From assembly GCA_045540755.1 (NCBI GenBank), contig JAZQHV010000026.1, positions 2,179 to 66,178 of the forward strand: DNA of 64,000 bases, given 5' to 3'. The stretch's first letter is position 1; each line of letters starts with the position of its first letter. The DNA is from Eubacteriales bacterium. Lineage in GTDB: Bacteria; Bacillota; Clostridia; Oscillospirales; CAG-272. This document shows, piece after piece, positions 3,791 to 62,303 of the stretch. The translations under genes and the position numbers were made by a program. The notes beneath the pieces were generated by a model. The model saw nothing but the letters and a program-made list of their open reading frames with translations. It made no database searches and was not told where the DNA came from.

Positions 3791-3857
3791 GGGAAACTGT
3801 AATTCGAAATACAGTTGGCTTCCCCTTGAGGGGAAGGCTTATAACTTCCAATTTCTC
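3791..3857. repeat. Degenerate two-site REP cassette A (ATAG-type left, GGAA-type right)
   Basis: GGGAAACTGTAATTCGAAA (decayed ATAG site), CTTCCCCTTGAGGGGAAG hairpin, AACTTCCAATTTCTC at 3843-3857. Confidence 0.6.
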
Positions 3858-3903
3858 GCTTGGATTTTTGCCTTCGGCAAAAATCCACCTTTTCTCTTCA
3901 CTG

Positions 3904-3931
3904 AAAAAAGCACCCTTTCGGGTGCTTTTTT
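3904..3931 (-). terminator. Intrinsic terminator
   Basis: AAAAAAGCACCCTTTCGGGTGCTTTTTT directly after SBP paralog 2 stop. Confidence 0.85.
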
Positions 3932-3936
3932 GAAAA

Positions 3937-5439
3937 TCACTCCAGCTCGGACATGAACTCGTTGATAAGCTTCAGCATCTGCTCGGCAGGGTTGCGGAAG
4001 GTCTCGTAGATCGAGGCGATTGGTGCGCGGTCGATGCACAGGTTGACCAGTTTATCCGAATAGGAACCGATCTTGTAGTAGTTACCGACGTCGTACACAC
4101 GAGAGGCGAAGATGATGTCCAGCATCTCCACGCTCTCCTCGTCACGCATGGTCTGACCGACGAGGGTCTGGTCATAGTAAGCAGGCGTAAGGATCTCCTT
4201 GCCCTGATATGCCAGCTCCTCAAGGACAATGCCCGTGCGCTCCGCATCCTGAATCATCGCAGGCACACAGAGGAACTGCGCGTGGAAGGAACTGATGGCG
4301 TGGCCGTAGCTCTCCTGCTCCTTTTCAAACTTGGGCATCGGCAGAATACCGAAATCCACGTCGCTGTCACGGTGACGGTTAACAACAGTGAGCAGGCTCA
4401 TGTAAAATACCGTGCGTCCCTCCGTAAAGACAGCATCGCGGTTGGTATCCCACGTACCGATGGGCGACTGTGCACCCGTCAGATTGTCGTACTGGTAGTT
4501 GTACACGTGCGCCTGGTCATATGCCATTGCCTGATATGCCTCCAGCAGGTTGACCATACGCTCGTTGTAGAAGGTCAGCTCAAGCAGACCCTCGTCGTTG
4601 ATCTTGCAAACGCGCTCGTTGCCTGCGGCATAGATGCCGAGGGTCGCGTCCTTCCAGGTCATGAGACCGTACTTATCCTTTTCGTTATAAATACCGTCCT
4701 GATTGAGATCCTCGCCGACCTCCTTCACGAGTGCCGCAAAGTTTTCGAGCGTCCACTCGTCCTCGCGTACCATCTGATACGGATCGTCCAGACCGTACTC
4801 GTCGATCATATCCTTGTTGAACAGGACCGCATGGGTAAAGAGGTTGTCCGTGATGGAAATATCGCCCGTGGTGTAGTACATCTTACCGTTCAGGGAAAGA
4901 TGCTCGTTGGCGCGCTGATCCCAATAGTCCTTGGAAAGATCCATGTGCGGCATCTTGGCAAGATCGTAGATGTAGCCGCTGTACGCAAGCGTTGCCACGT
5001 CAAAGGTGCCGATCATTGCCGCATCAATCGCATTGTTTCCCGACATATACTCGGTATACATCTTGGTAAAGCCCTTGCCACTGCCGTTTGCCGTGTTGAA
5101 CTGCGTTTCGTCCTCCACGACGATCTCCACGCCATACTTTTCCTTGATGTACTCATTGCGGCGGTGGATGGCAATATCGATCGCCGAGGACTCGGGATCG
5201 TTGGTGTTAAAGTCGGTCAGTCCCGCTTTTCTCGCCGAGTTGCCCGCAACGTACATATTGAACTCGCCGCCGATGTTCAGCGTAGCCGCATCGGGCAGAT
5301 CGGGGGCATCGTCGGGCGCCTCGGTCACGGGGGCAGCCGTGGTCTCGGGAGCCTCGGTCACGGCGACCTCGCCGCCGCAAGCCGCAAGCAGAGAGCAAAG
5401 CATGACTGTTGCAAGAAGCATTGCAAGAATTCTTTTCAT
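3937..5439 (-). CDS. Extracellular solute-binding lipoprotein, paralog 2
   Basis: Lipobox LAAC; same motif series as 2166..3671. Confidence 0.85.
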   Translation of the reverse strand: MKRILAMLLATVMLCSLLAACGGEVAVTEAPETTAAPVTEAPDDAPDLPDAATLNIGGEFNMYVAGNSARKAGLTDFNTNDPESSAIDIAIHRRNEYIKEKYGVEIVVEDETQFNTANGSGKGFTKMYTEYMSGNNAIDAAMIGTFDVATLAYSGYIYDLAKMPHMDLSKDYWDQRANEHLSLNGKMYYTTGDISITDNLFTHAVLFNKDMIDEYGLDDPYQMVREDEWTLENFAALVKEVGEDLNQDGIYNEKDKYGLMTWKDATLGIYAAGNERVCKINDEGLLELTFYNERMVNLLEAYQAMAYDQAHVYNYQYDNLTGAQSPIGTWDTNRDAVFTEGRTVFYMSLLTVVNRHRDSDVDFGILPMPKFEKEQESYGHAISSFHAQFLCVPAMIQDAERTGIVLEELAYQGKEILTPAYYDQTLVGQTMRDEESVEMLDIIFASRVYDVGNYYKIGSYSDKLVNLCIDRAPIASIYETFRNPAEQMLKLINEFMSELE

Positions 5440-5551
5440 GAGAAATCCTCACTTTCTAAAATACTACCTATATTTTACTAAAAAAGCGCACGGCTTGCAA
5501 CATAAAAAACCGCCGAAAATCTTCTTTGTCTTTTGTGCGCAATGATTAATA

Positions 5552-5583
5552 AAAATCGCCTCTTTATACAAAGAGGCGATTTT
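5552..5583 (-). terminator. Intrinsic terminator
   Basis: AAAATCGCCTCTTT-ATAC-AAAGAGGCGATTTT after SDR stop. Confidence 0.75.
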
Positions 5584-5587
5584 AAAA

Positions 5588-21844: not shown

Positions 21845-22085
21845 GAGAAGTTGCAGGAGAGTTGTTCCCCTTTGATCCCCTCATCCACCGTTAACACGGT
21901 CCCCCTTCCCCCGAGGGGGAAGGTAATACAGCGCACCAATAGCTTCCCCCCTCGGGGGAAGCTGTCACCGAAGGTGACTGATGAGGGGGTCAAAGACTTT
22001 CAACCTATTATTTATCGGTTGCATAGGTCGGGAGTAAACCCCCGCCCTACGGTTTGAACGCTTCGCCTTCAAACTATAATTTACC
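21845..22085. repeat. Two-site REP cassette B (degenerate GGAA left; two ATAG sites right)
   Basis: CCCTCATC/CTTCCCC-GGGGAAG doublet; sites AACCTATTATTTATC 22002-22016 and AAACTATAATTTACC 22071-22085 flank a CCCCGCCCTAC REP. Confidence 0.8.
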
Positions 22086-24468: not shown

Positions 24469-25587
24469 ATGCGGATCTTTATCTACGTACAGCCCGACGT
24501 CAAGGATACCTTTTGGACCAAGCAAACACAAAAGGCGATCGCGGCGGAGATCCTGCGCAAGCGCCACACCTCCGTATATCTGCACGGCGCGACCGCAAGC
24601 GAGATCGACCTTGACGCCGCTTACGCGGGCGAAGAAAAACGCATTCTTTTGTACGTCGGCACGTCGCTGAAAAAAACACCCGTTGACCTCGCCTTTCTCG
24701 CAGAGCACGGCGTACACATCATCCGCATACACAGCGGAAGCGACTCCTTCCCCGCCGACTGCTCCCGCGTTCTGCTCAACTATCACGATGCCATCGAAAA
24801 AGCCATCTGCTACCTTGTGGGAAACGGGCACGACCGCATTGCGCTTTTCGGTGTCAACCCCTATTCGCACACCGATATAGAGATGAAAAACCGTTTCTCG
24901 GCATATCTCCGTTCCAAGGGGGCATCCGCACAGCGCGATATCTACTACAGCCGCGCCTCGATCGCCGATTGCTACGCAAGCTTTTTCCCCTATTGTGCCG
25001 CGTACAACGCCGTCATCTGTGTCAACGACATGGCGGCGATCACGCTTTTGCACCGTCTGAAGGCAGACGGCGTGCGCGTACCCGAGGATCTCTATATCGT
25101 TTCCTGCGGACTCTCCTCGGTATTTGCCAATCACCCCTCCACCGCGATCACCTCGGTCTCTGCCGACCGTGACGCCATCAGCGCGCAGGCAGTCTTCGCC
25201 TACGCTACACTCCTGCGTGCCTCCGCCGACATCACGTTGAATCTGCGCGTAGCGGCAAAGCTGACCGTGCGTGCCTCCACCGACTTTGCCCCCATCCCTT
25301 GGGGGAAACGGTTTACGCCACACTCGTTTTCCCCCGTACCTATAGATTACTTCTCCGATCCCGCCGCCAAGCGGTTTTACAGCATTGAAAGTCTCCTGTC
25401 CTCCTGTGACGAGACCGATGCGGGCATCCTCGACGGTCTGCTCGTGGGTGAGAGCTACTCTGCCATCGCCGAGCGGCTGTTCACCTCGCGCAACATGGTC
25501 TCTTATCGCGTCAAGCGCATGTGCCGCCTGACCGAATCTGCCAACCGAGAGGATCTCGTCGCACTCCTTCGACCGTATCTGGAATAA
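24469..25587 (+). CDS. Regulator 5, same architecture
   Basis: ATG 24469 after GAAAGGAGG; AVICVND, GVRVPEDL; GESYSAIAERLFTSRNMVSYRVKRM. Confidence 0.8.
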   Translation: MRIFIYVQPDVKDTFWTKQTQKAIAAEILRKRHTSVYLHGATASEIDLDAAYAGEEKRILLYVGTSLKKTPVDLAFLAEHGVHIIRIHSGSDSFPADCSRVLLNYHDAIEKAICYLVGNGHDRIALFGVNPYSHTDIEMKNRFSAYLRSKGASAQRDIYYSRASIADCYASFFPYCAAYNAVICVNDMAAITLLHRLKADGVRVPEDLYIVSCGLSSVFANHPSTAITSVSADRDAISAQAVFAYATLLRASADITLNLRVAAKLTVRASTDFAPIPWGKRFTPHSFSPVPIDYFSDPAAKRFYSIESLLSSCDETDAGILDGLLVGESYSAIAERLFTSRNMVSYRVKRMCRLTESANREDLVALLRPYLE

Positions 25588-25613
25588 AAAAGCCGCCACC
25601 GGCGGCTTTTTTT
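25586..25613 (+). terminator. Intrinsic terminator
   Basis: AAAAAAGCCGCC-ACC-GGCGGCTTTTTTT. Confidence 0.8.
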
Positions 25614-25622
25614 GTTTGCAAA

Positions 25623-25852
25623 GTTAAATTAGTAGCGCTAAACCGTAGGGCGGGGGTTTATCTCCCGCCGTAAACGTAGCGCTAAATTATAGTTTGAAGT
25701 TGTTTGCGAAAAACCCCTCATCCGTCGCTAATGCGACACCTTCCCCCGAGGGGGAAGGTAATACAGCGCACCAATAGCTTCCCCCCGGGGGGAAGCTGTC
25801 ACCGAAGGTGACTGATGAGGGGGTCCAAGCCCCCTTCAACTTCCAATTTATT
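25623..25852. repeat. Two-site REP cassette C (ATAG, ATAG ... GGAA)
   Basis: Near reverse complement of cassette H without its 78-nt insert; GCTAAATTATAGTTT 25681-25695, AACTTCCAATTTATT 25838-25852. Confidence 0.85.
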
Positions 25853-25857
25853 GCGCG

Positions 25858-25885
25858 AAAAAGGAAGGCGAAAGCCTTCCTTTTT
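25858..25885 (-). terminator. Intrinsic terminator
   Basis: AAAAAGGAAGGC-GAAA-GCCTTCCTTTTT. Confidence 0.85.
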
Positions 25886-25892
25886 GCTTGTT

Positions 25893-27380
25893 CTATTCTT
25901 CGATCGACTGCATCATCTGGTTGATGAGGTCGATCATGCGTTCTGCGGAAACGCGATAGGTCTCGTACATCGAGGCAATGGGCGTGCGCGTGACGTAGAT
26001 CTGGGACATCTTCGAGTTGTAACTGCCGATCTTGTAGTATGCGCCAAGGTCAAAGACGTGCGTTGCATAGATGATATCCAGCATCTCGGCGCTTTCCTCA
26101 TCGCGGACGTATCTGCCGACCAGCGTCTGGTCGTAGAACGCAGGCGTGAGCAGGCGGAGTCCCTGATATGCCAGCTCCTCCAGCACAATGCCCGTGCGCT
26201 CGTAGTCCTTTGCCATCTTAGGTACGCAGACGAACTGCGAATGGAAGGCGCTGACCGCATGGCCAAAGCGCTCCTGATTTTCGTCCAGCTTGGGGTACGG
26301 CAGAATGCCGAAATCGGTCTCGCTGTCGCGGTGGCGCTCGACCGTTTCCACCAGCGTCATGTAGAACACCGCGCGATCCTCGTTGAAGATGGCATCGCGG
26401 TTGGGGTCCCACGTAGCAAGCAGGGTCGCTTTGCCCGTAACGTTGTCATATTGGTAGTTATAGGAATGTGCCTGGTCGAACACGAGGTCGAAATAGCGGT
26501 CATAGAGGTTGAGTACGCGCTCGTTGTAGAAGGTGAGGTGGATAAGTCCGTCCTCGCCGACCGAGGCAATGCGCTCACCCGAGCAGGCAAGGATCGCGGT
26601 GGTCGGGTCGTTCCATGTGAGGATGCCGTAACGGTCGTGCTCGTTATAGATGCCGTCCTGGTTGAGGTCCTCTCCCACGCTCTTGGCGATGCGCGCGTAG
26701 GACTCCATCGTCCACTCGTCGTCGCGGACGAGCTGATAAGGATCCTCAAGACCGTACTCCGCGATCATGTCCTTGTTGAAGAGGATCGCGTGGGTCATGA
26801 GGTTGTCCACGTGGCTGATGTCGCCCGTGGAATAGTACATTCTGCCGTTGACGGCGAGATCCGCGTTGGCGCGCTGATCCCAGTAGGGCTTCGTAAGATC
26901 GACGTAGGGCGTTTGGTTCAGGTCGTGCAGGTAGCCGCCGTAGGCAAGCGTTGCCACGTCGTACGGACCGATGGAGGCGGCGTCGTACAGACCTTCGCCC
27001 GCCATATAGTCGTTGTAGACGGTCTTAAAGCCCGTACCGCTTCCGTTGGTGGAGCCGAATTCGATGAGGTCTTCATCGACGATCTCCACGCCGTATTTTT
27101 CCTTCAGCAGTTCGTTGCGGCGGAAGATCGCCGTTTCCACTGCGGTGCCCTCCTCGCCCTCGGCGTGGAAGTCGTTGCGCTCGATGTTGGCGCTGACGAG
27201 GATGTTGAACGTGCCTGCGATGTCGACCGTTTCGGGATCGGGCAGGTCGGGGGAATACGCCTCGTCGGGAGATGCGGTCACGGGAGATGCAGGCGCCGTA
27301 GTCTCGGCGGGCGTGCCGCCGCACGCCGCAAGCGCAAGCAACATCAGCGCCGCAAGCAGAAGTGCAAGAAGTTTTTTCAT
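25893..27380 (-). CDS. Extracellular solute-binding lipoprotein, paralog 3
   Basis: Lipobox LAAC; FNKDMI, DLNQDG, DFGILPYPK, RDEESAEMLDII. Confidence 0.85.
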   Translation of the reverse strand: MKKLLALLLAALMLLALAACGGTPAETTAPASPVTASPDEAYSPDLPDPETVDIAGTFNILVSANIERNDFHAEGEEGTAVETAIFRRNELLKEKYGVEIVDEDLIEFGSTNGSGTGFKTVYNDYMAGEGLYDAASIGPYDVATLAYGGYLHDLNQTPYVDLTKPYWDQRANADLAVNGRMYYSTGDISHVDNLMTHAILFNKDMIAEYGLEDPYQLVRDDEWTMESYARIAKSVGEDLNQDGIYNEHDRYGILTWNDPTTAILACSGERIASVGEDGLIHLTFYNERVLNLYDRYFDLVFDQAHSYNYQYDNVTGKATLLATWDPNRDAIFNEDRAVFYMTLVETVERHRDSETDFGILPYPKLDENQERFGHAVSAFHSQFVCVPKMAKDYERTGIVLEELAYQGLRLLTPAFYDQTLVGRYVRDEESAEMLDIIYATHVFDLGAYYKIGSYNSKMSQIYVTRTPIASMYETYRVSAERMIDLINQMMQSIEE

Positions 27381-27400
27381 GATAGTCTCCTTTGTAGAGA

Positions 27401-27588
27401 GATAAATTGGAATTTGAAGGGGGAGTTAGTTTGGTAAAAAGGAATCCTCCACCCGCCAAAGGCGGGAGCCCCCTTTGACAAGGGAGCCTTGGTTTCATCG
27501 CATTTGAGCCTCCCTTGTTAAAGGGAGGGGGACCGTTTACGGTGGTGGGATTCTTCTTTCTCAAACAACTTTCAACCTATAATTTATC
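27401..27588. repeat. Two-site REP cassette D (GGAA ... ATAG)
   Basis: GATAAATTGGAATTT 27401-27415; CCCTTT..CAAGGGAG doublet; AACCTATAATTTATC 27574-27588. Confidence 0.85.
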
Positions 27589-27594
27589 GTTTGT

Positions 27595-29442
27595 TCAGTC
27601 GAGAATGACACTCGGCCAGCGGGAGGTGTCCACGCCGCCGACGCTTGTCATTGCATCTGCGGTGATGCCCTCGGCATCACGGTTGTACAGGATCGGCGAG
27701 ATGGAAAATGCGTTTCTGCCGAGCATGCCGACCGCACTGCGCGGCAGAGCGATCTCGTAGAGCACGCCTTCGTCGGTATCGCTGTTGTCACCGACCGTGC
27801 CATAGACCTTCACCGCCGCCTTGTCTGCGGCAAAGCTGCTCTTTTCAGTACCGCCCGTGACGTAAGAAACGGTCACGCCGCCGTCCATGTCCACGCGGAC
27901 GCGATAGAAACGGAAGGTATCCAGCGCAACGCAGATCTCGATCGCGTCGTCCGCCGTCAGGTAATTGTCAAGGCGGCTGACAAGGAAGTACAGATTTTCC
28001 GCATCGTGCGCGGTCTGTACCGTCATCTGCGCCTGCGTTTCGCTGCCGACAAAGTGTGCATCGGTGTTGGTACGCCACTCCATGCCGTCTCCGTCCACGG
28101 TGGCGGTCATTTTTTTCGCATTCGTGCGGTGATTGAGGTAAGAATGCTCCAGAATCAGCGCCGAAATATTGGTCACCTTATCCAGCCTTTGTGCGGCGGT
28201 GATGACCTCGTGCGTACCGACAAGCTCACAGCAGGTCCACATGCCTCTGCCCTCGGGCACGGTCACAAATTCAAAGGAGTCATACTCCTTGCCGTCGGGA
28301 CGGATCATGCGGCCGTAGAACAGCTTCTGACCGTCGTTATGGTAAGCGCAGTAGACCTCACCCGACGGGAAAGTGGCAAGGTACGGGCCTGCGCCCGTGA
28401 AATTCTCGCGGTAGTCGCTACCGTTTGTGGTCGCGCCGTCCTTAAGATCCTCCTCCCAGAGTCCGCCGTCGGCGCTGACCGTCATGCCGATCGTAAACTT
28501 GATGGGATCGAGGGTCTTGACCTCTGCCGCAAGGAGCGTTTTTCCATTATACAGGCGGGTCGCCGCAGGCATCTGCGCCGAGAACCACGGCAAAATGCCT
28601 GCCTCGGGCGCCTCGGTATGCGTTTTTCTGCCAACGTACTGGCTGAACGCGATAAAGGGCTGATAGTAGTTGGTGTCGCCCGCCTGTACGTTCGGCGTCC
28701 AGGTGTAGCCGCCGTCATCCGACCAGACAAGTCCGATCGCGCCCGCGCGGTGGTCGGCATCATAGCCGTACTTGCGCATGTAATAGGAGCCACTGGAGAA
28801 GTAGACCTCGATGCGGCCGTCGTCACGTTGCCAGATGAACGGCTCCCAGTTGCCGCCCGTATAGATACGGGTCGGCTCGCCCCACGTGATGGTGTTGTCG
28901 GCGGCGATGGTGCCGCGGCGCGTCCAGAGACCGCCGTGCTCGGGATACTGCACGCGCCCATCCGCGTTATTGAGGCGCAGATAGTACACGCAGAGGAGTT
29001 CTCCGTTGTCAAGCAGAGTCACGTCCACATTGACACCGCAGAACTTGTCCGTCTTGCCCGCAAGCGGGCCGTCGGGATAGGTAAATGCGTTTGCCACACT
29101 GTAATAGAGATATTCGGGCGCGCTCCAATGGATGCCGTCGGGCGAGGTACACCAGTAGAGATGCGTACCGATCTGCCCGTACATAAAGGTCATAAGGTAG
29201 AGGTCGTCCTTCAGCTTTTTCACGCGCGGGTAATACGCCATATCATAGCGCGTCTGCCCCGTAGAGGCGGACGAAAGGGTCAGCGACTCGCGGTAACTGC
29301 GCTCCAAAGAAGCGGTGGTGTAATCCTCGCCGACGTGGCTGTTTGTCACCGCCTCGGTGTTCAGCTCCTTGATCGTGGGGAGCTGCGCAAAAGCCGTGAG
29401 CGTGAGCAGTGCCGCAAAGAAAATGCAGAATAATTTCTTCAT
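27595..29442 (-). CDS. Secreted Asp-box (BNR) sialidase-like beta-propeller with C-terminal CBM9/DOMON-like domain, copy 1
   Basis: Signal peptide; YYPR, TSPDGIHW, WEP, SDDGGYTW; C-term TVDGDGMEW, AHDAENLYFLV, YEIALP. Confidence 0.7.
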   Translation of the reverse strand: MKKLFCIFFAALLTLTAFAQLPTIKELNTEAVTNSHVGEDYTTASLERSYRESLTLSSASTGQTRYDMAYYPRVKKLKDDLYLMTFMYGQIGTHLYWCTSPDGIHWSAPEYLYYSVANAFTYPDGPLAGKTDKFCGVNVDVTLLDNGELLCVYYLRLNNADGRVQYPEHGGLWTRRGTIAADNTITWGEPTRIYTGGNWEPFIWQRDDGRIEVYFSSGSYYMRKYGYDADHRAGAIGLVWSDDGGYTWTPNVQAGDTNYYQPFIAFSQYVGRKTHTEAPEAGILPWFSAQMPAATRLYNGKTLLAAEVKTLDPIKFTIGMTVSADGGLWEEDLKDGATTNGSDYRENFTGAGPYLATFPSGEVYCAYHNDGQKLFYGRMIRPDGKEYDSFEFVTVPEGRGMWTCCELVGTHEVITAAQRLDKVTNISALILEHSYLNHRTNAKKMTATVDGDGMEWRTNTDAHFVGSETQAQMTVQTAHDAENLYFLVSRLDNYLTADDAIEICVALDTFRFYRVRVDMDGGVTVSYVTGGTEKSSFAADKAAVKVYGTVGDNSDTDEGVLYEIALPRSAVGMLGRNAFSISPILYNRDAEGITADAMTSVGGVDTSRWPSVILD

Positions 29443-29451
29443 GGCGCCTCC

Positions 29452-31851: not shown

Positions 31852-31970
31852 GGGATACCTCCGAAGAATATTTCTACAATTATATAATACCATTTCCGTT
31901 TTGCACCGTCAACTCGAAAATCCGCTTCAAAATCCGCAGTAAAAATCCACAAAGTCGGAGGGGTAAATGC

Positions 31971-32210
31971 GACAAATTATAGTTTAGCGCGTAGCGCTAA
32001 ACCGTAGGGGCGATTATAATGCGACCGCAGGTCGCTATATCGCCACGCGGGCGACCGCTGGTCGCCCCTACAATAATTTGTAAAAAGGGCGGACACGCGC
32101 CGACCTTTTTACTCCTTAAAGGGGCGCGCACGGTTGAGTGCGGCGCGAGCGAACGCCCCTCCCCACTTGAAAACGCTTGCGTTTTCAAGTGATATAACTT
32201 CCAATTTATC
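31971..32210. repeat. Two-site REP cassette E (ATAG ... GGAA)
   Basis: GACAAATTATAGTTT 31971-31985; GTAGGGGCG...GTCGCCCCTAC doublet and CACTTGAAAACGC-TT-GCGTTTTCAAGTG hairpin; AACTTCCAATTTATC 32196-32210. Confidence 0.85.
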
Positions 32211-32214
32211 GCGC

Positions 32215-32244: not shown

Positions 32245-32254
32245 GCTTCTTTTC

Positions 32255-33742: not shown

Positions 33743-33762
33743 GATAGTCTCCTTTGTAAAAA

Positions 33763-34059
33763 GAGAAATTGGAATTTGAAAGACTTTCAGTTCAAAGATC
33801 CCTCACATACGTTCGGGATGACAAGCCGAGGTTGCTTTAGGGTGCTTTAGTTTGTCATTCCGAGCAACGCGAGGAATCTGCGAACAAGAGCGATAAATTG
33901 GAAGTTGTTTGGCAAAGAACCCCTCATCACCCGCTCCGCGGGAGCTTCCCCCCAGGGGGAAGCTATTCGTGCGCTGTATTACCTTCCCCCTCGGGGGAAG
34001 GTGGCGGCGAAGCCGTCGGATGAGGGGTTTTTCGCGTCCTCTTCAAACTATAATTTATC
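33763..34059. repeat. Two-site REP cassette F (GGAA, GGAA ... ATAG)
   Basis: Sites at 33763-33777, 33892-33906, 34045-34059; cargo 1 AGATCCCTC..GGATGACA/TGTCATTCC..GGAATCT doublet; cargo 2 CCCTCATC/GGGGAAG doublet. Confidence 0.85.
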
Positions 34060-34065
34060 GTTTGT

Positions 34066-35910: not shown

Positions 35911-35919
35911 GGCGCCTCC

Positions 35920-38319
35920 TTATTTCGTGAGGGTTGCCGTGGAGGTCGCACCGTCCCAGGCTACGGTTGCGCCCATTGCCTCCGCAACCACGCGGACGGG
36001 CAGGTAGGTACGGCTGTTTTCAATAAAGGCAGGCGCATCCAGCTTGACGGTCTTGCCGTTGATCCATGCGGTGTCCGCGCCGACCTTGATAGCAATGTCG
36101 ATGTTATCGCCCTTGATGGTGACCGAGGAGGTCGTGCCGTCCCAACCCACCGTGCCGCCGAGATTCTCGGCTACAAAGCGGACGGGAAGCATCGTTCTGC
36201 CGCTCTTGATGACGGGTGCCGCATCCAGTGTCTTTGCACTGCCGTTGACGTAGCCCGTGAGCTTGCCGATGGTGAGCTTCAGTTCAGTGCCGCCCGCATA
36301 CTCGGTGACAAGTCCTCCCTCGTTGACGATGGTGAACTTCTGCATTGCCTCCTTGGAGAGGATCGCGGTTGCGCCCTCCTCTACGACCAGCTTGTAGTGG
36401 TAGTCGAGGCCGGGCTTGGAGAGAAGCTGTACGGTGTCGGTAACGACAAGGTTGCCACCGTTCTGCACGAGGATGGTGTTCTGATTGCCCATCTGGAACA
36501 GGATGATGTTGTCGAAGGTGAGGTCACTGCAAAGAGTGAGCGTGAGGCCGCTGTTGATATTGAAGCAACCTGCGGGCTTGTCTGCGGGCAGAGGATTGCG
36601 GTAGTCCACGCCGTCCCATACAGAGGTGATGGTGACGGGGCCGTAGGTCTTGGCGAAGGTGTAGTTGGAGGGGATATTGGAGTTGCCCACGCAGACGATG
36701 ACGCCGCCGTTCTGAATCATGCTGTACAGATGCGTGGACATCGTGCCGAAGGTCTGCTTGGGGGTCTTCGGCGTGAGTCCGTCGTTATCGTTGGTGGCGT
36801 CGCGGTCGTGGAATACGACCGTGGGGCTTCCCTCTGCGGGGCCGTCGCCCTCCACTTCAAACTGGGAGAGGTCGCCGACGGTGATGATGATCTCCACGTT
36901 CTGCATTGCCTTGGGAACGGGGCATTTGTCGCCCATGACCCACGTATCAAAGTTCAGTGAGCCAAAGGTCTCCTTTTTCGCGGCCGCCTTGGTATCAAAC
37001 GCCGCACTGCCGCTGTCGGTGTTGGTCTCCGCGATGGTGCCCGTTGCGGCGCGGTTGATGTTCGGATAATAGGAAGCGCTGATGTCGCAGGGGATCGCGC
37101 CTGCGGCAACGCCGACAAGACCGCCCATGCCAGCCTGCGAGTACGCACGGCTGACCGAGATGCAGTTGATGACGTTCACGCCGCGCTGACGGCCGAGCAT
37201 ACCGCCGCCCGCGCTGACACCGTCCACAGGCGCGGTGTTCAGACAGTTCTGTACGGTGACCGCAGTCTGCGAATCGGTGTAGGCAACGATACCGCCCGCC
37301 TGCGCGCCGGTACTCGTGACCGTGCCGACATTCACGCAGTTATCGTAGATCACCTCATAGAATTTGCCCTCGGCACCGATGCCGTGGTAGCCGGTGATAC
37401 CGCCCGCATAGCGAGAGGAAAGAATATTACCCTTGTTGTAGCAGTTGATAACGTCCATGCCTGCGCTGATGTGCGACTGCACCTCCGAGCGGCCGACGAT
37501 ACCGCCGAGCGATACGTAGTGCGTGGAGGAGGAAGCATTGTTCTGCGCGTCGAGATTACCGTAGTTCGCACAGCCCTCGATATGTACCGAGCCCTGATTG
37601 ATACGCAGGTAGCCGGCGATACCGCCGCAACGTGCGCGGTCGGTGGAGGTGTAGGTGATATCGGCGTAGTTTGTGCAGTTCAGCACCGTGAGCGCGGGGG
37701 CTGCGGCGTTGGTCATACGGCCTCTGCCGATGATGCCGCCGAGGTTACCGTATGCGCAGGTGAAAGTGCCGCGGTTGACACAGTCCACAACGGTGACGGC
37801 AGACGTGCCGCCGTGCGCAACGATGCCGATGATACCGCCCACGTTACAGGGGCCGATGACGGTTGCCTCGTTGGTACATTTCTCTACGGTTACGCCCTGA
37901 AACGCAGTGCCGACGACGGCGCCGACAGCCACGTAGTAGTCGCCCACCTTGACCTCCGCATTCTGTGCGGGATAGTTACACTGTACGGTGCCCTTGACCG
38001 TAACGTTCATGATCGTGGCATCCTTTGCCGCACCGATGAGACCGACCGTGCCGTTCATCGACACGAGGTTCAACGTAACGGTGTGTCCCTTGCCGTCAAA
38101 GGTGCCGGTATACGGCTTTTCAAACGTGCCGATCGGCTGCTGTACCTTGCCGCTAAGGTCGATGTCTGCCGTCAGCGTGATGTCCTCGTCCCAGCGAGAG
38201 GTGTCGGACATGATGGCGACAAGCTCGTCGGCAGTGCCGACGTTTACTGCCGATGCCGTGAGCAGCATTGCCGCCGCAAGCACAAGCATAAGCCAAGCGA
38301 AAGAAAAAAGCTTTTTCAT
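35920..38319 (-). CDS. Secreted GLUG-repeat protein with stalk domain, copy 2
   Basis: Colinear with 29452..31851 (ATNDNDGLTPKTPK, near-identical C-terminus); ATG 38319. Confidence 0.75.
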   Translation of the reverse strand: MKKLFSFAWLMLVLAAAMLLTASAVNVGTADELVAIMSDTSRWDEDITLTADIDLSGKVQQPIGTFEKPYTGTFDGKGHTVTLNLVSMNGTVGLIGAAKDATIMNVTVKGTVQCNYPAQNAEVKVGDYYVAVGAVVGTAFQGVTVEKCTNEATVIGPCNVGGIIGIVAHGGTSAVTVVDCVNRGTFTCAYGNLGGIIGRGRMTNAAAPALTVLNCTNYADITYTSTDRARCGGIAGYLRINQGSVHIEGCANYGNLDAQNNASSSTHYVSLGGIVGRSEVQSHISAGMDVINCYNKGNILSSRYAGGITGYHGIGAEGKFYEVIYDNCVNVGTVTSTGAQAGGIVAYTDSQTAVTVQNCLNTAPVDGVSAGGGMLGRQRGVNVINCISVSRAYSQAGMGGLVGVAAGAIPCDISASYYPNINRAATGTIAETNTDSGSAAFDTKAAAKKETFGSLNFDTWVMGDKCPVPKAMQNVEIIITVGDLSQFEVEGDGPAEGSPTVVFHDRDATNDNDGLTPKTPKQTFGTMSTHLYSMIQNGGVIVCVGNSNIPSNYTFAKTYGPVTITSVWDGVDYRNPLPADKPAGCFNINSGLTLTLCSDLTFDNIILFQMGNQNTILVQNGGNLVVTDTVQLLSKPGLDYHYKLVVEEGATAILSKEAMQKFTIVNEGGLVTEYAGGTELKLTIGKLTGYVNGSAKTLDAAPVIKSGRTMLPVRFVAENLGGTVGWDGTTSSVTIKGDNIDIAIKVGADTAWINGKTVKLDAPAFIENSRTYLPVRVVAEAMGATVAWDGATSTATLTK

Positions 38320-38430
38320 GGAAACCACCTCATTGTATAGTTTTCTATCATAATTATATAATAGAACACGTTCCGCTTCAACACAAAGTTTTTTGTAAAA
38401 ATCCGTACCTCTCATCGGACAAAGCGAAAA

Positions 38431-38613
38431 GATAGATTATAGTTTAAAAAGTACCAATCCCTCAGTCAGCTAACGCTGACAGCTCCCTTTACACAAGGGA
38501 GCCTTGGTTTGATCGTATTTTAGCCTCCCTTGTGTAAAGGGAGGTGGCGCCGACAGGCGACGGAAGGATTGGTCTATACCAAACTAACTCCCCTTTCAAC
38601 TTCCCAATTTATC
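38431..38613. repeat. Two-site REP cassette G (ATAG ... GGGAA variant)
   Basis: GATAGATTATAGTTT 38431-38445; CTCCCTTTACACAAGGGAG doublet; AACTTCCCAATTTATC 38598-38613. Confidence 0.85.
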
Positions 38614-38617
38614 TTGC

Positions 38618-38645
38618 AAAAAAGCACCCTTTCGGGTGCTTTTTT
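38618..38645 (-). terminator. Intrinsic terminator
   Basis: AAAAAAGCACCCTTTCGGGTGCTTTTTT, identical to 3904-3931. Confidence 0.85.
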
Positions 38646-39879
38646 ACTCTGCGTATTTTGCGTCGTGCAGTTCCTTGACGATGCCGCCGACGGCATAGAT
38701 AAACTCGGTGTTCGCACGCTTCATATGCCCCTCGTCCATATTGGAGAGGAACACCACTACGTACGGATGCTCAGCAAGTGCGACACCGCCGTCACAGTAG
38801 GAATCCTCGTCCCAGCCGTACTTGTGTGCGACGGGATCGGGGGAAAGTGCGCGTTGCAACATGACGGTCTGCGTGGAGCGTTCCATCTCCTTGCAAAGCC
38901 ACTTGGCATTTTCGCTTTCGGTAGCAAAATAGGCGTGCAGACGGGTGAAAAATGCGCCGTAATTACGCGCATTCGTGCGCCACCATGCGCCGTAGCGCGT
39001 AGGCGTCAGCCCGTCCCGCTCCATAATGCCGCGGAAAAACGCCGTGCCGAAGTGAGCCTGCAATAGGGCATACGCCGTGTTGTCGCTGTAGCGGATGGTA
39101 TGCGAAAGCAATTCTTGCACCGTGAACTCGGTGCCATCCGGAACGTCGGCAAAATTACCCGAGCCCTCGACAAATTTATCCGCAGTGTAGACGATCTTTT
39201 CCGTAAGATCGACCTCACCCGCATCGGCAAGCTGTAAAAGTGCGTACACGTACACCGCCTTGATCATCGAAGCGCAAAAAAAGGTCTCGTCGGGCGCAAA
39301 GGCAAACGCCTCGCCGCTTTCCACGTCCTGATAGTAGAGCGCCACTCTACCCTCCACCTCGTACACGGTGGTCACGGGCGGCTCGGACGTTGTTGTCGCA
39401 GTTTCCGCAGGCAACTCGGTCACGGGAGGCTCGGGCGCCTCCGGGGTTTCGGCGGCGACTGTTTCGGTCACCTCCTCCACCTTTACGACGGGCGGCACCT
39501 CCAGATAGAGCAGCTCGGCAAGGCGATATTCGGGCGTTTCGGGGTCCAGGAATATAAAGTTCTCCACGCGGCGGAGCCCCTCCTCCTCGGGGACGGAGAC
39601 AGGCACAAAGCCGAACGTCTCGGTCACGGTAGAGCTCTCCGGTGCGACCGTAGTCTCCGGTGCGACCGTAGTCTCAGGCGCGACCGTAGTCTCGGGCGCG
39701 ACCGTAGTCTCAGGCGCGGCGGTGGTCTCGGGCGCGACCGTAGTCTCGGGTACAACCGTGGTCTCGGGTGCGACCGTGGTCGTGGGGACTTCCGTTGTCA
39801 CCGCAGGCGGCGCAGTACAGCCCGCAAAACAGGCGGCAAGTGTCGCCGCAAACAGCAGTTTACAAAGTGACTTCAGCAT
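38644..39879 (-). CDS. Lipoprotein serine hydrolase (class A beta-lactamase/PBP-like fold) with repeat stalk
   Basis: ATG 39879, lipobox FAGC; SxxK (SMIK), SDN, HKYG. Confidence 0.8.
   Translation of the reverse strand: MLKSLCKLLFAATLAACFAGCTAPPAVTTEVPTTTVAPETTVVPETTVAPETTAAPETTVAPETTVAPETTVAPETTVAPESSTVTETFGFVPVSVPEEEGLRRVENFIFLDPETPEYRLAELLYLEVPPVVKVEEVTETVAAETPEAPEPPVTELPAETATTTSEPPVTTVYEVEGRVALYYQDVESGEAFAFAPDETFFCASMIKAVYVYALLQLADAGEVDLTEKIVYTADKFVEGSGNFADVPDGTEFTVQELLSHTIRYSDNTAYALLQAHFGTAFFRGIMERDGLTPTRYGAWWRTNARNYGAFFTRLHAYFATESENAKWLCKEMERSTQTVMLQRALSPDPVAHKYGWDEDSYCDGGVALAEHPYVVVFLSNMDEGHMKRANTEFIYAVGGIVKELHDAKYAE
39631..39774 (-). repeat. 18-bp coding tandem repeat, 8 units (VAPETT)
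   Basis: GGYGCGACCGTAGTCTCV-type units; protein VAPETT VVPETT VAPETT AAPETT VAPETT VAPETT VAPETT VAPESS. Confidence 0.95.
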
Positions 39880-40732
39880 GGCGAATGACGTGGCAGTTGA
39901 TGTTGACGGCGACCGGCAGACCTGCGATATGTGTCGGTGCCGCGGCGACCTTGACCGCAAGCGCAGTGGTGTCACCGTGAAAGCCCTGTGGGCCGATATC
40001 GGTACGGTTGATCTCCCCAAGCAACCGCGCTTCCAGCGCGGCATAGCGCGCATCGGGGTGCGTGTCGTCCAGCGGACGGGCAAAGCATTCCTTAGCCAGT
40101 GCGGCGCACTGCTCAAAGTCGCCGCCGATTCCCACGCCGACCGTGATGGGCGGACAAGGATTGGAGCCCGCCTTTACCACCGTATCCACCACGAAGCGAA
40201 CGATATCGTCCTCGGTGGCAGAGGGGGTAAACATACGAAGCGCGCTCATATTCTCACTGCCAAAGCCCTTGGGCAGTGCCACAATGCGAAGCGCATTTCC
40301 CTTTACGGGACGGATATGCAGGATCGCAGGGGTGTTATCCTCGGTATTTGTACGGTCGTAGAGCGGGTCGCGTACGACAGAAAGGCGGAGCGCACCGTCC
40401 ACGTACGCGCGGCGCACGCCGCGGTCCACGGCATCGCGAAGGCTACCGTCAACAAGCACGTCCTCGCCGACGTAAGCAAACACGACCGCCATACCCGTAT
40501 CCTGACAGATGGGTACGTCGATCTGCTTTGCCGCCTCGACGTTATCGAGCATACGAGAAAGCACCTGCTTTGCAAGCGGCTTGGACTCGCGCGCCCGCGC
40601 ACAGGCGATACAGTCGGTAACGTCCTGTGAGAGCGTATAGTTTGCCTTCACAAACAGCGCGGCGACCGCATCTTCGATTTCCTGCGGCTCGATCACGCGA
40701 ATCTCTCTTCCGTTATACGTAATACTTCCCAT
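39860..40732 (-). CDS. Fe-S hydro-lyase (fumarate hydratase/tartrate dehydratase) alpha subunit
   Basis: PICQDTG, NTEDNTP, PKGFGSEN, NPCPP, THIAGLPVAVNINCH; ATG 40732. Confidence 0.92.
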   Translation of the reverse strand: MGSITYNGREIRVIEPQEIEDAVAALFVKANYTLSQDVTDCIACARARESKPLAKQVLSRMLDNVEAAKQIDVPICQDTGMAVVFAYVGEDVLVDGSLRDAVDRGVRRAYVDGALRLSVVRDPLYDRTNTEDNTPAILHIRPVKGNALRIVALPKGFGSENMSALRMFTPSATEDDIVRFVVDTVVKAGSNPCPPITVGVGIGGDFEQCAALAKECFARPLDDTHPDARYAALEARLLGEINRTDIGPQGFHGDTTALAVKVAAAPTHIAGLPVAVNINCHVIRHAEVTL

Positions 40733-40733
40733 G

Positions 40734-41021
40734 TTACTTGTCCTCAAAATTGCTGAAATAGATGACCTCGCCGGGCAGGCAGTAGCCAAGCTCGCGGCGG
40801 GCGACCCGTTTGATATATTCCTCGTTCCACGGAGCAGCAATCTCCTCGGCAAGACGGTCGTTCTCCGCGCGGAGCAGTTCGACCTGCTTTGCCAGCGCCT
40901 CACGCTCGGCAAGCATATCGTTGTAACGCATCCAGAGTGCGCCGATGAGCAGAAAGCCACCAAGAAGCACCGCGACAAGTGCGATGCGTACCGAGATCGG
41001 CAGATGTTTTTGCTTTGCCAT
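40734..41021 (-). CDS. divIC: Septum formation initiator DivIC/FtsB
   Basis: TM, coiled coil, EYIKRVARRELGYCLPGEVIY; follows yabQ. Confidence 0.85.
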   Translation of the reverse strand: MAKQKHLPISVRIALVAVLLGGFLLIGALWMRYNDMLAEREALAKQVELLRAENDRLAEEIAAPWNEEYIKRVARRELGYCLPGEVIYFSNFEDK

Positions 41022-41035
41022 TTGCGCTCCTCCTT

Positions 41036-41551
41036 TTACATTCCGTTGCGGATGCCGCCGCGCATGCGTTTTTTGCGTTTTCTCGCGGCGACCGCCTCCC
41101 GTCTTCGGGATACGTATTCATTATACCGCGCGACTGTGCGCGTGACAATAGGCATTTTGCAAAAAAGTGCGAGCATCCGTCGAAGAAAAGCACGGACGCC
41201 GCGGTCGATCCGTTCGGCAAGCCGGATAACCAGCCTGCCGACCGTCTGATAATAACAGAAAAATCCGAGTGCCGCGCCGAGAAGCCCGTAGCCGCGCATG
41301 CGCCCGTCCCCCGTGAGAAAAAAGAACACACAAAGAACAGCGCTTGCCACCGCAAAAAAGAACAGATCGCCGAGCGCGGCGAGGATATACGAGATCCAGC
41401 GGCGCACACCGCTTTTCCCGAAAGGGCTTGCGACCGTCACGCCGAACAGGATGCGCACAAGACGCACAAGGTCATAGACCGCGCCAAGGCAGGCTCCGAC
41501 AGGGACACTGAGCGCCGCAGAAACGGCGATCGCCTCCATGGATACTTCCAT
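41036..41551 (-). CDS. yabQ: Spore cortex biosynthesis protein YabQ
   Basis: GAVYDLVR, DLFF, GRMRGY, GFFCYY; synteny yabP-yabQ-divIC. Confidence 0.8.
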   Translation of the reverse strand: MEVSMEAIAVSAALSVPVGACLGAVYDLVRLVRILFGVTVASPFGKSGVRRWISYILAALGDLFFFAVASAVLCVFFFLTGDGRMRGYGLLGAALGFFCYYQTVGRLVIRLAERIDRGVRAFLRRMLALFCKMPIVTRTVARYNEYVSRRREAVAARKRKKRMRGGIRNGM

Positions 41552-41794
41552 CTACTTTTTGCGGGTCGGCCATTTTTTGCCGCCCGCGGCATAATACACA
41601 CCGTCGATCGTCCCAAGCACCGTGAGGTCTCCGCTTTCCGCGGACATGTTGACGATCTTCAACTCCTTGCCCTCGATCTCCACCTTGCCAAGCGGCGTCA
41701 TCACCGTGACAAATCGCTCGTCAAAGCTGAGCACCTCACTGACCGCACTCATCAAAAGTGTCGCACGGTCGTGTATCTCTATTCTCGCTCCCAT
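41552..41794 (-). CDS. yabP: Sporulation protein YabP/YqfC family
   Basis: EVLSFDE, TPLGKVEIEGKELKI, GTIDGVYY. Confidence 0.85.
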   Translation of the reverse strand: MGARIEIHDRATLLMSAVSEVLSFDERFVTVMTPLGKVEIEGKELKIVNMSAESGDLTVLGTIDGVYYAAGGKKWPTRKK

Positions 41795-41852
41795 CTCGCA
41801 CACCTCCTCGCAAAAGGATATGCGAAACGGGAAAAGAAAATGAAGCCCGAAA

Positions 41853-42169
41853 GATAAATTGGGAATTTGAAGGGGGCTTGGAACCCCTCATCAGTCACCT
41901 TCGGTGACAGCTTCCCCCCGGGGGGGAAGCTATTGGTGCGCTGTATTACCTTCCCCCTCGGGGTAGCGAAGCGGCGACGCGGTAGTGAATGACAGTCCGG
42001 TGGACTGTCAGAGCCGCGGCGTGACCGAGTCGCAACGAGACGGTGTCGCATTAGCGACGGATGAGGGGTTTTTCGCAAACAACTTCAAACTATAATTTAT
42101 CGCTTCGTTTACGGCGGGAGTAAACCCCCGCCCTACGGTTTAGCGCTACGCGCTAAACTATAATTTGTC
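41853..42169. repeat. Two-site REP cassette H (GGGAA ... ATAG, ATAG)
   Basis: Sites 41853-41868, 42087-42101, 42155-42169; CCCTCATC doublet with 78-nt insert; CCCCGCCCTAC REP between the two ATAG sites. Confidence 0.87.
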
Positions 42170-42171
42170 GG

Positions 42172-42411
42172 TTATATCACTTCGTACATCTCGGCGGCAT
42201 CGGCTTTTTTGGTGCTTTCGCGCACGTCGGTCACGCGGACGCGAAGCGTCTTTTCGCCGAAGGTAACGGCGATCTCATCGCCGACCTTGACGTCGTAGGA
42301 TGCCTTGACCACCCTGCCGTTCACGCTGATGTGCGCGGCGTCACAGGCATCGTTGGCAACGGTGCGGCGCTTGATGATGCGCGACACCTTTAAAAACTTA
42401 TCAATACGCAT
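42172..42411 (-). CDS. yabO: S4 RNA-binding protein (YabO/RqcP)
   Basis: MRIDKFLKVSRIIKRRTVANDAC...AAEMYEVI. Confidence 0.92.
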   Translation of the reverse strand: MRIDKFLKVSRIIKRRTVANDACDAAHISVNGRVVKASYDVKVGDEIAVTFGEKTLRVRVTDVRESTKKADAAEMYEVI

Positions 42412-48236: not shown

Positions 48237-48481
48237 GACAAATTATAGGTTGAAGTTGTTTGCGAAAAACCCCTCATCACCCGCTTCGCGGGAGCTTCCC
48301 CCCGGGGGGAAGCTGTTGGTGCGCTGTATTACCTTCCCCCTCGGGGTAGCGAAGCGGCGACGCGGTAGTGAATGACAGTCCGGGGGACTGTCAGAGCCGC
48401 GGCGTGACCGAGCCGCAGCGAGACGGTGTCGCGTTAGCGACGGATGAGGGGTTCCAAGCCCCCTTCAACTTCCAATGTATC
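48237..48481. repeat. Two-site REP cassette I (ATAG ... GGAA)
   Basis: GACAAATTATAGGTT 48237-48251; CCCTCATC doublet with the same 78-nt insert as H; AACTTCCAATGTATC 48467-48481. Confidence 0.87.
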
Positions 48482-60634: not shown

Positions 60635-60651
60635 AAAGTCACTTCCGTTTC

Positions 60652-60844
60652 GTTAAGCTATAGGTTGAAGTTGTTGGGGAGAAACCCCTCATCAGTCACC
60701 TCCGGTGCCAGCTTCCCCCGAGGGGGAAGCCATTATAGCGTACCAATAGCTTCCCCTTGAGGGGAAGCTCCCGCGGAGCGGGTGATGAGGTGTAGCCGCC
60801 GCAGCGGCGTTACCCATTCTTTCCCTTTCACCTACCAATTCATC
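60652..60844. repeat. Two-site REP cassette K (ATAG ... degenerate GGAA)
   Basis: GTTAAGCTATAGGTT 60652-60666; CCCTCATC/GGGGAAG doublet; ACCTACCAATTCATC 60830-60844. Confidence 0.75.
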
Positions 60845-60886
60845 TTTAAACCGCAAGCCGGATTATTATTTTTTTGAGGTACACAT

Positions 60887-62074
60887 ATGAAAATTCAACT
60901 TGGCGTACTGTTCGGCGGCAACTCCACCGAGCATGAGATCTCCATCATTTCCGCAGTACAGGCAATGCTTTCGCTCGACCGCGAGAAGTATGACGTCGTA
61001 CCGCTTTACATTACCAAGGACTCCCGCTTTTTCACGGGCGAGGCGCTCCTGTCCATCGAAAACTACAAAAACATCCCCGCACTGTTAACAAAGTGCACCG
61101 AGGTCATCCTTGTCAAGGAAAACGACGTTGCCGCCATCTACAAATTCCCGCCGAAGGCGTTTGGCAAGAGCCGCATCGGACACATCGACATTGCCTTTCC
61201 GATCGTACACGGCACCAACACTGAGGACGGCGTTCTGGCGGGCTTTATCGAGATGCTGGGCATCCCCTACGTAGGCTGTGACGTGGCATCGAGTGCGCTC
61301 GGCATGGATAAATTTGCAATGAAAGCCATCTTCCGCGAGTACGGCATCCCCGTGCTCGAAAGCAAGCTCTACACCACTGCCGACCACGTAGAGGGCGAGG
61401 CGCTCCTCGACCGTGTGGAGGGCGCGTTTGCCTACCCCGTGATCGTCAAGCCCGTCAATCTCGGCTCGTCCATCGGCATTTCGGTGGCGGCAGACCGCGA
61501 CGCCCTGCGGAAGTCGCTTGATACCGCCTTCTCCTTTGCGGAGGTGGTACTGGTAGAGCGCGCGATCACGAATCTGCGTGAGATCAACTGCTCTGTCCTC
61601 GGCGACCGTTTCTCAGCAGAGGCATCCGAATGCGAGGAGCCCGTGCGCGGCGACGACATCCTCTCCTTTGAGGAAAAATACATGAGCGGTCAAAAGGGCG
61701 GCGCAAAGGGCATGGCAAGCGTTACCCGCAAGATCCCCGCGCCCATCTCCGACGAGATGCGTACCGAGATCCGTGAAATGGCGGTCAAGGCGTTCCGCGC
61801 ACTCGGCTGCTCGGGCGTTTCGCGCATCGACTTTATGATCGACGGCGACGAAAATAAGGTATACTTAAACGAGATCAACACCATCCCCGGCTCGCTCTCG
61901 TTCTATCTGTGGGAGCCGATCGGCGTGAAGTATGCGGACCTGCTCGACCGCATGATCGATCTTGCGATGAAGCGCCAGCGCGCACGCAAGAACCTGACTT
62001 TCTCCTTTGAAAGCAACGTGCTTTCGGGCATCAGCCTCGGCGGCACCAAAGGCGCCAAGGGAAGCAAGATGTAA
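60887..62074 (+). CDS. ddl: D-alanine--D-alanine ligase
   Basis: GGNSTEHEIS, HGTNTEDG, GSSIG, EEKY, NEINTIPG. Confidence 0.93.
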   Translation: MKIQLGVLFGGNSTEHEISIISAVQAMLSLDREKYDVVPLYITKDSRFFTGEALLSIENYKNIPALLTKCTEVILVKENDVAAIYKFPPKAFGKSRIGHIDIAFPIVHGTNTEDGVLAGFIEMLGIPYVGCDVASSALGMDKFAMKAIFREYGIPVLESKLYTTADHVEGEALLDRVEGAFAYPVIVKPVNLGSSIGISVAADRDALRKSLDTAFSFAEVVLVERAITNLREINCSVLGDRFSAEASECEEPVRGDDILSFEEKYMSGQKGGAKGMASVTRKIPAPISDEMRTEIREMAVKAFRALGCSGVSRIDFMIDGDENKVYLNEINTIPGSLSFYLWEPIGVKYADLLDRMIDLAMKRQRARKNLTFSFESNVLSGISLGGTKGAKGSKM

Positions 62075-62084
62075 GGGAGAGAAA

Positions 62085-62303
62085 GATAGATTATAGGTTA
62101 TCGGAGCGTTCTACCTTTGGCTCCCTCAGACGAGGGATGCTGTCATAGCGACGCTTTGCGTCGCATTGGCGGCTGACTGAGGGAGGGAAAAGTAAGAAAT
62201 TCCATGGATCACTCCCTCCGACACGCTACGCGCGCCACCTCCCTCGTCTGAGGGAGGCGAAGAAAAAGCTCCAGTTTACTCACCGATAAATTTCCAATTT
62301 TTC
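62085..62303. repeat. Two-site REP cassette L (ATAG ... GGAA)
   Basis: GATAGATTATAGGTT 62085-62099; CTCCCTCAGACGAGGG / CTCCCTCGTCTGAGGGAG doublet; AATTTCCAATTTTTC 62289-62303. Confidence 0.8.

Follow-up and report, generated by a model that had tools for sequence, protein, structure and literature searches.

What kind of genetic element keeps two unequal ends around interiors that are unrelated to one another? The question is raised by a 64,000-nucleotide (nt) stretch of an uncultured Eubacteriales genome (G000:C26:2179-66178, hereafter the window), drawn from an assembly, G000, of 2.33 Mb in 93 contigs with 53% G+C and an estimated completeness of ~70%. An earlier note on this DNA had described eleven intergenic elements with unequal ends, some of them degenerate, and had proposed that constant asymmetric ends enclose variable interiors; all eleven were recovered by 15-mer matching in the window, and the proposal on ends and interiors was borne out, the outer and inner parts behaving as separable modules. 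In what follows, the ATAG-core 15-mer GATAAATTATAGKTT is called the A-type site and the GGAA-core 15-mer GATAAATTGGAAKTT the G-type site, the distinguishing tetranucleotide occupying positions 9-12. The shell consists of two imperfect inverted-repeat halves of ~25-40 nt each, the outer 15 nt of which are the two sites, and the core consists of one or more GC-rich multi-hairpin modules enclosed by the shell. [quoted passage not shown]

Entire elements turn up as copies at other intergenic positions, where the flanks are unrelated and no target-site duplication is present. Nine pairs of complete elements, ends and core included, occupy unrelated loci with 88-97.5% identity, and the identity between their flanks falls to background within ~1-5 nt of GATAAATT. 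According to crude gene calls, all of the 25 complete elements of G000 are intergenic (25/25), often immediately downstream of a stop codon or next to a terminator or a ribosome-binding site. The site orthologous to the element at 41853-42169 is empty in the related genomes G014, G009, G010 and G013 and holds other repeats in G006, G001 and G017; in G000 itself, two further paralogues of the flanking lipoprotein gene are devoid of the element, and a presumed empty target, GATAAATTTATC, has 0 occurrences. Complete elements in the list of paired sites measure 161-335 bp, and the superfamily as a whole ranges from ~65 to 335 bp. Their predicted single-strand folds are long branched hairpins, with a median folding z-score of -6.9 relative to shuffled sequences over 25 elements, and the terminal 8 nt pair with each other in the predicted folds of 16 of these 25.

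Shell and core behave as separable parts, the core occurring in either orientation. Three core families recur, F1 of the CCCCTCATC type, F2 made of CTCCCTCAGACGAGGGA and its inverse, and F3 of the CTCCCTT..AAGGGAG type; shell halves that are alike over ~35-40 nt surround unrelated cores, either F1 or F3 (C80:30526 vs C26:29579). The shells of the elements at 41853-42101 and 48237-48481 are almost the same (31/33 and 28/31 positions), and the cores of 182-185 nt agree at 171/185 positions once one of them is reverse-complemented, as against 104/185 in direct comparison. Relative to the shell read from A to G, the F1 core lies in one orientation in 7 and in the other in 5 of 12 copies. Modules are also nested, with a 75-nt insertion inside one F1 hairpin and GTAG-tagged palindromes inside a small A-type hairpin module. 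Depending on the motif, from 11/12 down to 5/16 of the core motifs of G000 lie at most 330 nt from a site, the proportion being mostly above 80% (61/73 for CCCCTCATC). No shell was seen empty; complete elements in the pair list are at least 161 bp long, and a mini-element of ~66 nt still contains a hairpin. The 75-nt module, palindromic with a GACAGTCC...GGACTGTC centre, is nested in the F1-core hairpin at 41950-42070 and 48330-48420 of the window, and also occurs at 88-92% identity in G011 and G014, two species without shell ends.

The two ends obey a strict rule of combination in G000. Among 68 exact matches to the generic site GATAAATTNNNNKTT in this genome, the tetranucleotide is ATAG in 35 and GGAA in 22, eleven others occurring once each. 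Every complete element is heterotypic, with one A-type and one G-type end (25/25), an outcome of P = 1.7e-8 if ends were assorted at random. When one mismatch is tolerated, 106 sites are obtained, of which 61 have a partner (heterotypic in 60), 34 reach a contig end and 11 lack a recognisable partner, mostly explained by degeneracy of the latter. One apparent A/A and one apparent G/G pair proved to be shadows of 18-bp palindromes and were rejected as elements. Conservation begins ~3 nt outside GATAAATT and runs inward past the 15-mer, the A and G halves aligning as imperfect inverted repeats over ~35-40 nt. In subfamilies whose ends continue with TTATC, arms of 5-6 nt around a centre of 6-8 nt can be read, these arms being far shorter than those of known recombinase sites; the ends of F1 elements, which continue with TTGAAG, have no second arm and no arm-core-arm symmetry. 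Readings of the end as Xer/dif-like or as a binding site for integration host factor (IHF) were made by eye only and were dropped, conserved outer arms being absent. An outward-facing TATAAT is present in the A-type end, with no usable -35 box seen by inspection and no promoter scan made.

Outside this species the rule does not hold. The element-bearing, that is shell-bearing, genomes are G000, G002, G009, G010 and G013, whose assemblies are 63-98% complete, G002 reaching 98%. In G010, matching inverted-repeat ends continue ~25 nt inward and form three ATAG/ATAG pairs and one AGAG/AGAG pair. In G002, an AWTG variant of the site gives 104+117 sites vs 13+7 control matches, and the 17 elements fetched comprise 7 with mixed AATG/ATTG ends, 6 homotypic and 4 others. 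The GGAA core is absent from the exact matches in G002, G009, G010, G013 and G014 and was found only in G000. The expectation that elements always join one GGAA and one ATAG site thus stands for G000 (25/25 elements, 60/61 partnered sites) and fails for G010, where ends are homotypic, and for G002, where they are mixed. Since the ends of sister species are equal or freely mixed, the A/G asymmetry is a species-specific trait of an inverted repeat, not a design principle: what had been taken for two heterospecific sites are the outermost parts of one long inverted repeat, and the four-base difference is peculiar to the species of G000.

Exact copies of the A-type 15-mer number 35 in G000, 13 in G009 and 14 in G010, with at most one in each of the other 38 of the 41 related genomes searched. 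Over 185,579 species genomes, most of the multi-contig matches belong to two Eubacteriales records of metagenome-assembled genomes (MAGs). The elements are restricted to a few species of one uncultured ruminant-gut genus of Eubacteriales; counts of the generic GATAAATTNNNNKTT in 61 genomes of the family were too noisy in AT-rich genomes to show any spread beyond the genus. Searches of viral contigs returned 22 and 23 single matches; six loci, each with a weak inverted partner, can probably be put down to chance. Two further observations concern the relatives. At four loci of G002 (L190, L192, L193 and L194), the same 14-nt sequence YGTTACGGCTAYGC follows the end, or precedes it as the reverse complement, pointing to an additional outer module or to a repeat favoured as a neighbour. 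In G006, the orthologous intergenic region L002 (G006:C15, ~1250-1480) contains a different array, built of about eight short hairpins that are GC-rich and each have a CATGATTTG-like spacer after them. Intergenic repeat systems of several unrelated kinds are present in this genus.

The window also contains two tandem paralogous three-gene operons, at ~25.8-31.9 kb and ~32.2-38.4 kb, which share ~72% nucleotide identity and each encode an 813/831-amino-acid protein with Cu_amine_oxidN1 and GLUG motifs, a 615/614-amino-acid BNR-like protein and a 495-amino-acid lipoprotein. In three slots of both operons, element ends stand at identical positions, but the cores differ. The six ends in these paralogous slots show 3 differences in 45 positions (P = 3.8e-4 at 28% divergence), and the flanks adjoining them are 94-96% identical (32/34 and ~45/47) vs 72% elsewhere in the operons. 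Immediately next to the closest homologues of the 495-amino-acid lipoprotein gene, examined in five relatives, no shell is present, so that the shared slots are not traceable to an ancestral insertion. Target specificity, gene conversion followed by core turnover, or exchange in place are all possible origins of this arrangement.

For a mosaic repeat superfamily of this kind, a plausible mechanism would involve a protein acting in trans that recognises the ends. This protein may require both kinds of end together, and the retention of the A/G arrangement by unrelated core families would then be accounted for. Core diversity may stem from palindromic modules having inserted, in nested fashion, at the centre of the palindrome, core inversion from recombination or template switching between inverted repeats, and core swaps from gene conversion between dispersed copies with homologous shells.

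Candidates for such a protein were sought among transposases and recombinases. IS256, DDE_Tnp_1, TnpB, ISL3 and DDE_3 were each detected in 0/5 element-bearing genomes, IS110 in 1/5 and rve in 3/5, with no shell sites beside the rve genes; Y1_Tnp was found in G000, with a weak match in G009, and not in G002, G010 or G013. Absence from these assemblies, which are 63-98% complete, is not proof of absence from the genomes, and the lack of these transposase families in G002, 98% complete and with more than 100 elements, is telling despite the incompleteness of the others. Classical transposases appear nearly absent from element-bearing genomes. The sole Y1 (IS200/RAYT-like, RAYT standing for REP-associated tyrosine transposase) gene of G000 is a 263-amino-acid open frame in an AT-rich stretch of contig C34 (C34:21800-23300), flanked on both sides not by shell ends but by its own ~25-nt repeat, AACACAGGGGACGGTTCTGTGTGTT-like, and looks like part of a separate REP/RAYT-type system. 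G000 has recombinase genes of two kinds, three tyrosine and two serine, and each of them lies more than 25 kb from any site. The earlier note had supposed the enzyme to be encoded elsewhere and had suggested looking for a tyrosine recombinase, RAYT or nuclease gene that co-occurs with the sites or is flanked by them; none of these recombinase genes lies near a site, and the Y1 gene is flanked by another repeat.

Several results weigh against the interpretation as a MITE- or REPIN-like superfamily. Target-site duplications, a part of the classical MITE definition, were found in 0/25 copies at any length of at least 3 nt with offsets of 0-4, the 2-nt flanking repeats being at chance level (6 observed vs 5.0 expected over 25 copies), and none was seen by eye in the 17 elements of G002. 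No autonomous element with these ends was found among the three long-range site pairs examined, and of the eight transposase families sought in the five element-bearing genomes, none is common to all and none is flanked by the ends. Strict A/G pairing in 25/25 elements across unrelated core families is not expected from simple descent of separate MITE families, and the conservation of ends around differing cores in old paralogous slots points to target specificity, gene conversion or turnover in place. Between co-directional genes, moreover, the orientation of the elements is 8:2 (p = 0.11), so that a mild strand effect is possible.

Other explanations have to account for the same observations. 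The earlier note had favoured a two-site cassette exchange, in which a site-specific (tyrosine) recombinase would use heterospecific sites with ATAG and GGAA cores to swap non-coding cassettes between fixed intergenic slots. The strictness of heterotypic pairing (25/25 complete elements and 60/61 partnered sites) is what such a system would give, as are different cores in the same shell, a core inverted within an unchanged shell, paralogous slots with conserved ends and differing cores, arrays in which a site is repeated in direct orientation (G,G,A and A,A...G), and subfamily ends of which some can be read as 6-nt inverted arms around a 6-nt centre. This explanation is nevertheless very improbable: ends are homotypic or freely mixed in sister species, the unit copied to unrelated loci is the whole element including both ends, conservation of the inverted repeat extends 25-40 nt inward with no second arm in the F1 end, and all five recombinase genes of G000 are remote from the sites. 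Moreover, no slot with a gene and no empty shell was seen; the three long-range inverted site pairs examined (2.3-3.3 kb), rejected as autonomous elements, enclose ordinary genes lying between separate elements, among them those for a BMP-type (basic membrane protein) lipoprotein, a thymidine kinase and a membrane protein. It is also unlikely, if less so, that the elements represent a two-level system, where a conserved, asymmetric palindromic shell would be copied and maintained and unrelated cores would be replaced or flipped inside it, the driver being a hairpin-processing or recombination enzyme that needs both kinds of end. Given the near absence of classical transposases, such a system, if true, would amount to a new way of mobilising intergenic repeats in bacteria.

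Dispensing with any dedicated enzyme, both the spread and the core swaps might be attributed to homologous recombination or gene conversion with the 35-40-nt shell halves as homology arms, and inversion to template switching or recombination between inverted repeats. The shell halves are long and alike enough to serve as homology arms, two-armed conversion would keep the A/G polarity, none of the eight transposase families is common to the five genomes, and the end-adjoining flanks in the paralogous operons (32/34 and ~45/47 vs 72%) are as conversion tracts predict. Conversion cannot seed a locus without a shell, yet orthologous and paralogous sites without shells exist; the flanks of the copies are unrelated, and ~80 copies in a 2.3-Mb genome require a route to new sites, which makes this explanation unlikely. 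A role in the host is more doubtful still, the elements then being transcript-stabilising or terminating hairpins or protein-binding sites whose ends are kept by purifying selection and not by mobility. Their exclusively intergenic position, in many cases just behind a stop codon or adjoining a terminator or ribosome-binding site, the high stability of the predicted structures, the conservation of ends in old paralogous slots and the 8:2 orientation trend are in its favour. The orientation to flanking genes is not fixed, varying for instance between the elements at 27401 and 31971, both located between minus-strand genes; no compensatory changes were seen between the terminal 8-mers where one of them is mutated, and elements are missing at orthologous sites in most of the genus. 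Rfam gave 0 matches at the gathering score in the whole window and 7 matches at E<=1 in 25500-42300, all far below gathering, and thus offers no known structured RNA for the host-function explanation.

Within the window, GATAAATTGGAAKTT has 9 matches at up to 2 mismatches vs 0.17 expected and GATAAATTATAGKTT 11 matches vs 0.04 expected. All eleven elements have one ATAG-type and one GGAA-type end, degenerate at 3791, 21845, 25623, 60652 and 60844, and their interiors belong to several unrelated hairpin families; all core motifs of the window lie inside them, except for one chance-looking match at 53422. Clean A/G pairs are found at 25681-25852, 27401-27588, 31971-32210, 38431-38614, 48237-48481 and 62085-62303. 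The first element (3791..3857) is short, with a single CTTCCCC..GGGGAAG hairpin, a G-type end at 3843-3857 (-) and a degenerate A-type end. An F1-core element with a 68-nt extra module follows (21845..22085), its left G-type end being degenerate (~21845), its A-type end lying at 22002-22016 (-) and the extra module ending in a second A-type site at 22071-22085 (-). The third (25623..25852), between convergent terminators, is an F1-core element with A-type 25681-25695 (+) and G-type 25838-25852 (-), preceded by a degenerate extra module from ~25623. The F3-core element (CTCCCTT..AAGGGAG) at 27401..27588, with G-type 27401-27415 (+) and A-type 27574-27588 (-), has a 96%-identical copy on contig C9. 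The element at 31971..32210 is composite, passing from A-type 31971-31985 (+) through a small hairpin, a REP-like doublet of GTAGGGGCG, further modules and a CACTTGAAAA hairpin to G-type 32196-32210 (-). It is followed by a G,G,A array (33763..34059), in which G-type 33763-33777 (+) is associated with a TGTCATTCC..GGAATC core, G-type 33892-33906 (+) with an F1 core, and a single A-type site, 34045-34059 (-), closes the array.

The remaining five elements include an F3-type element at 38431..38614, with A-type 38431-38445 (+) and G-type ~38598-38614 (-), the latter with a 1-nt insertion. At 41853..42169, an F1-core element with the 75-nt nested insertion forms a G,A,A array made of G-type 41853-41868 (+, with a 1-nt insertion), A-type 42087-42101 (-), the 68-nt extra module and, at its end, a second A-type site at 42155-42169 (-). 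The F1-core element at 48237..48481 (A-type 48237-48251 (+), G-type 48467-48481 (-)) has the same shell as 41853-42101 with its core inverted. Another F1-core element (60652..60844) has both ends degenerate, with 3 mismatches each, and the last (62085..62303), with A-type 62085-62099 (+) and G-type 62289-62303 (-), contains an F2 core (CTCCCTCAGACGAGGGA and its inverse) and has a 96%-identical copy on contig C81.

The genes beside these elements are ordinary chromosomal genes, coding for solute-binding lipoproteins, RelA/SpoT, a D-Ala-D-Ala ligase, MazG, a radical-SAM (S-adenosylmethionine) enzyme and a beta-lactamase-fold protein. The last of these, encoded on the minus strand at 38644-40116 and adjoining the element at 38431-38614, is a 490-amino-acid protein with a class-A-type beta-lactamase fold (Pfam Beta-lactamase2, E = 3.5e-35). 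Of the 186 contig ends of G000, 48 lie within ~200 nt of an element site, so that the assembly breaks at these repeats and their real copy number is higher. Contigs of four public metagenome runs likewise stop at element ends (e.g. 27410/27422, 32002, 38442 and 41868), with no bridging piece among those listed, and the joints listed in these runs are either repeat-mediated or inside coding paralogues. Public runs with parts of G000 are animal-gut metagenomes according to their run records; among the matches listed, 20 public runs contain 0.20-0.37 of the words and none is an RNA run. A metagenome contig collection, searched with the neighbouring MazG, yielded nothing closer than a match of 58% identity, and hence no close strain. 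A separate observation concerns the bins 38280-38943 and 41600-42263, over which the summed contig depth in four animal-gut runs is 83-1810 vs ~5-30 in adjoining bins, which indicates that the core modules are highly repeated in those communities, possibly in further organisms as well.

If the elements are indeed a superfamily of mosaic palindromic repeats, a well-defined group would join the few bacterial intergenic repeats whose spread involves neither a target duplication nor a known transposase. In practice, short-read assemblies break at these elements, which also abut the ribosome-binding sites and terminators of ordinary genes. A handle on how palindromic repeats diversify and are mobilised would come from three features: the pairing, strict in one species, of one end of each type; cores that are interchangeable and can be inverted; and ends that are conserved in old paralogous slots. 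As the genomes are small and contain few transposases, the number of candidate enzymes is limited.

Full-text literature searches returned no description of such elements in Clostridia. The nearest printed precedent found is in PMC3733652, which reports genes for Y1 transposases with repeated inverted repeats on both sides, these repeats being unrelated to REPs. With REPINs, the REP-RAYT system and TIRtrons, the present elements share inverted conserved ends, a less conserved spacer, the lack of target duplication, an intergenic location and an occurrence in dimers or clusters, and with REPs the GTAG-tagged palindromes that make up some of their internal modules. REPIN and REP-RAYT ends are GC-rich imperfect palindromes of 20-40 nt with a GTAG or CGTC tag, whereas the ends described here are AT-rich (GATAAATT...), the GTAG palindromes being internal only; the terminal 15-mer, in the main family, is itself no palindrome. 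The Y1 gene of G000 is flanked by another repeat, and Y1 matches are missing from G002, G010 and G013. Closer in overall build are MITEs, which are likewise small and non-coding, with terminal inverted repeats (15 to ~40 nt here), dispersed intergenic copies, unrelated flanks and orthologous empty sites, form hairpins and include subfamilies with only their ends in common. They differ in that no target-site duplication, parent insertion sequence or matching transposase was found here.

The Correia elements of Neisseria have two inverted-repeat subtypes, which are known to occur in all combinations, whereas only the mixed combination is found in G000. Conserved short ends that bound variable content, and arrays with repeated sites, are also known from integron attC cassettes, the pdif modules of Acinetobacter plasmids and heterospecific lox/FRT exchange; in contrast with those recombinase systems, the cargo here is non-coding, no recombinase is associated, the ends are tips of long inverted repeats, homotypic ends exist in sister species and whole units are copied to new loci. 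By analogy only, the terminal hairpins of parvoviruses, which adopt flip and flop forms, keep an outer stem around asymmetric inner hairpins found both ways at similar frequency (7:5 here), a likeness confined to the orientation count, the present elements being chromosomal intergenic repeats with no HUH nickase linked to them. Finally, the BIME mosaics of Escherichia coli, the BOX elements of pneumococci and the enterobacterial repetitive intergenic consensus (ERIC) sequences with internal insertions show the same modular build, longer variants produced by internal insertions and stem-loop potential. Their sequences are unrelated to those described here, in which a conserved outer shell surrounds interchangeable and invertible cores nested several levels deep.

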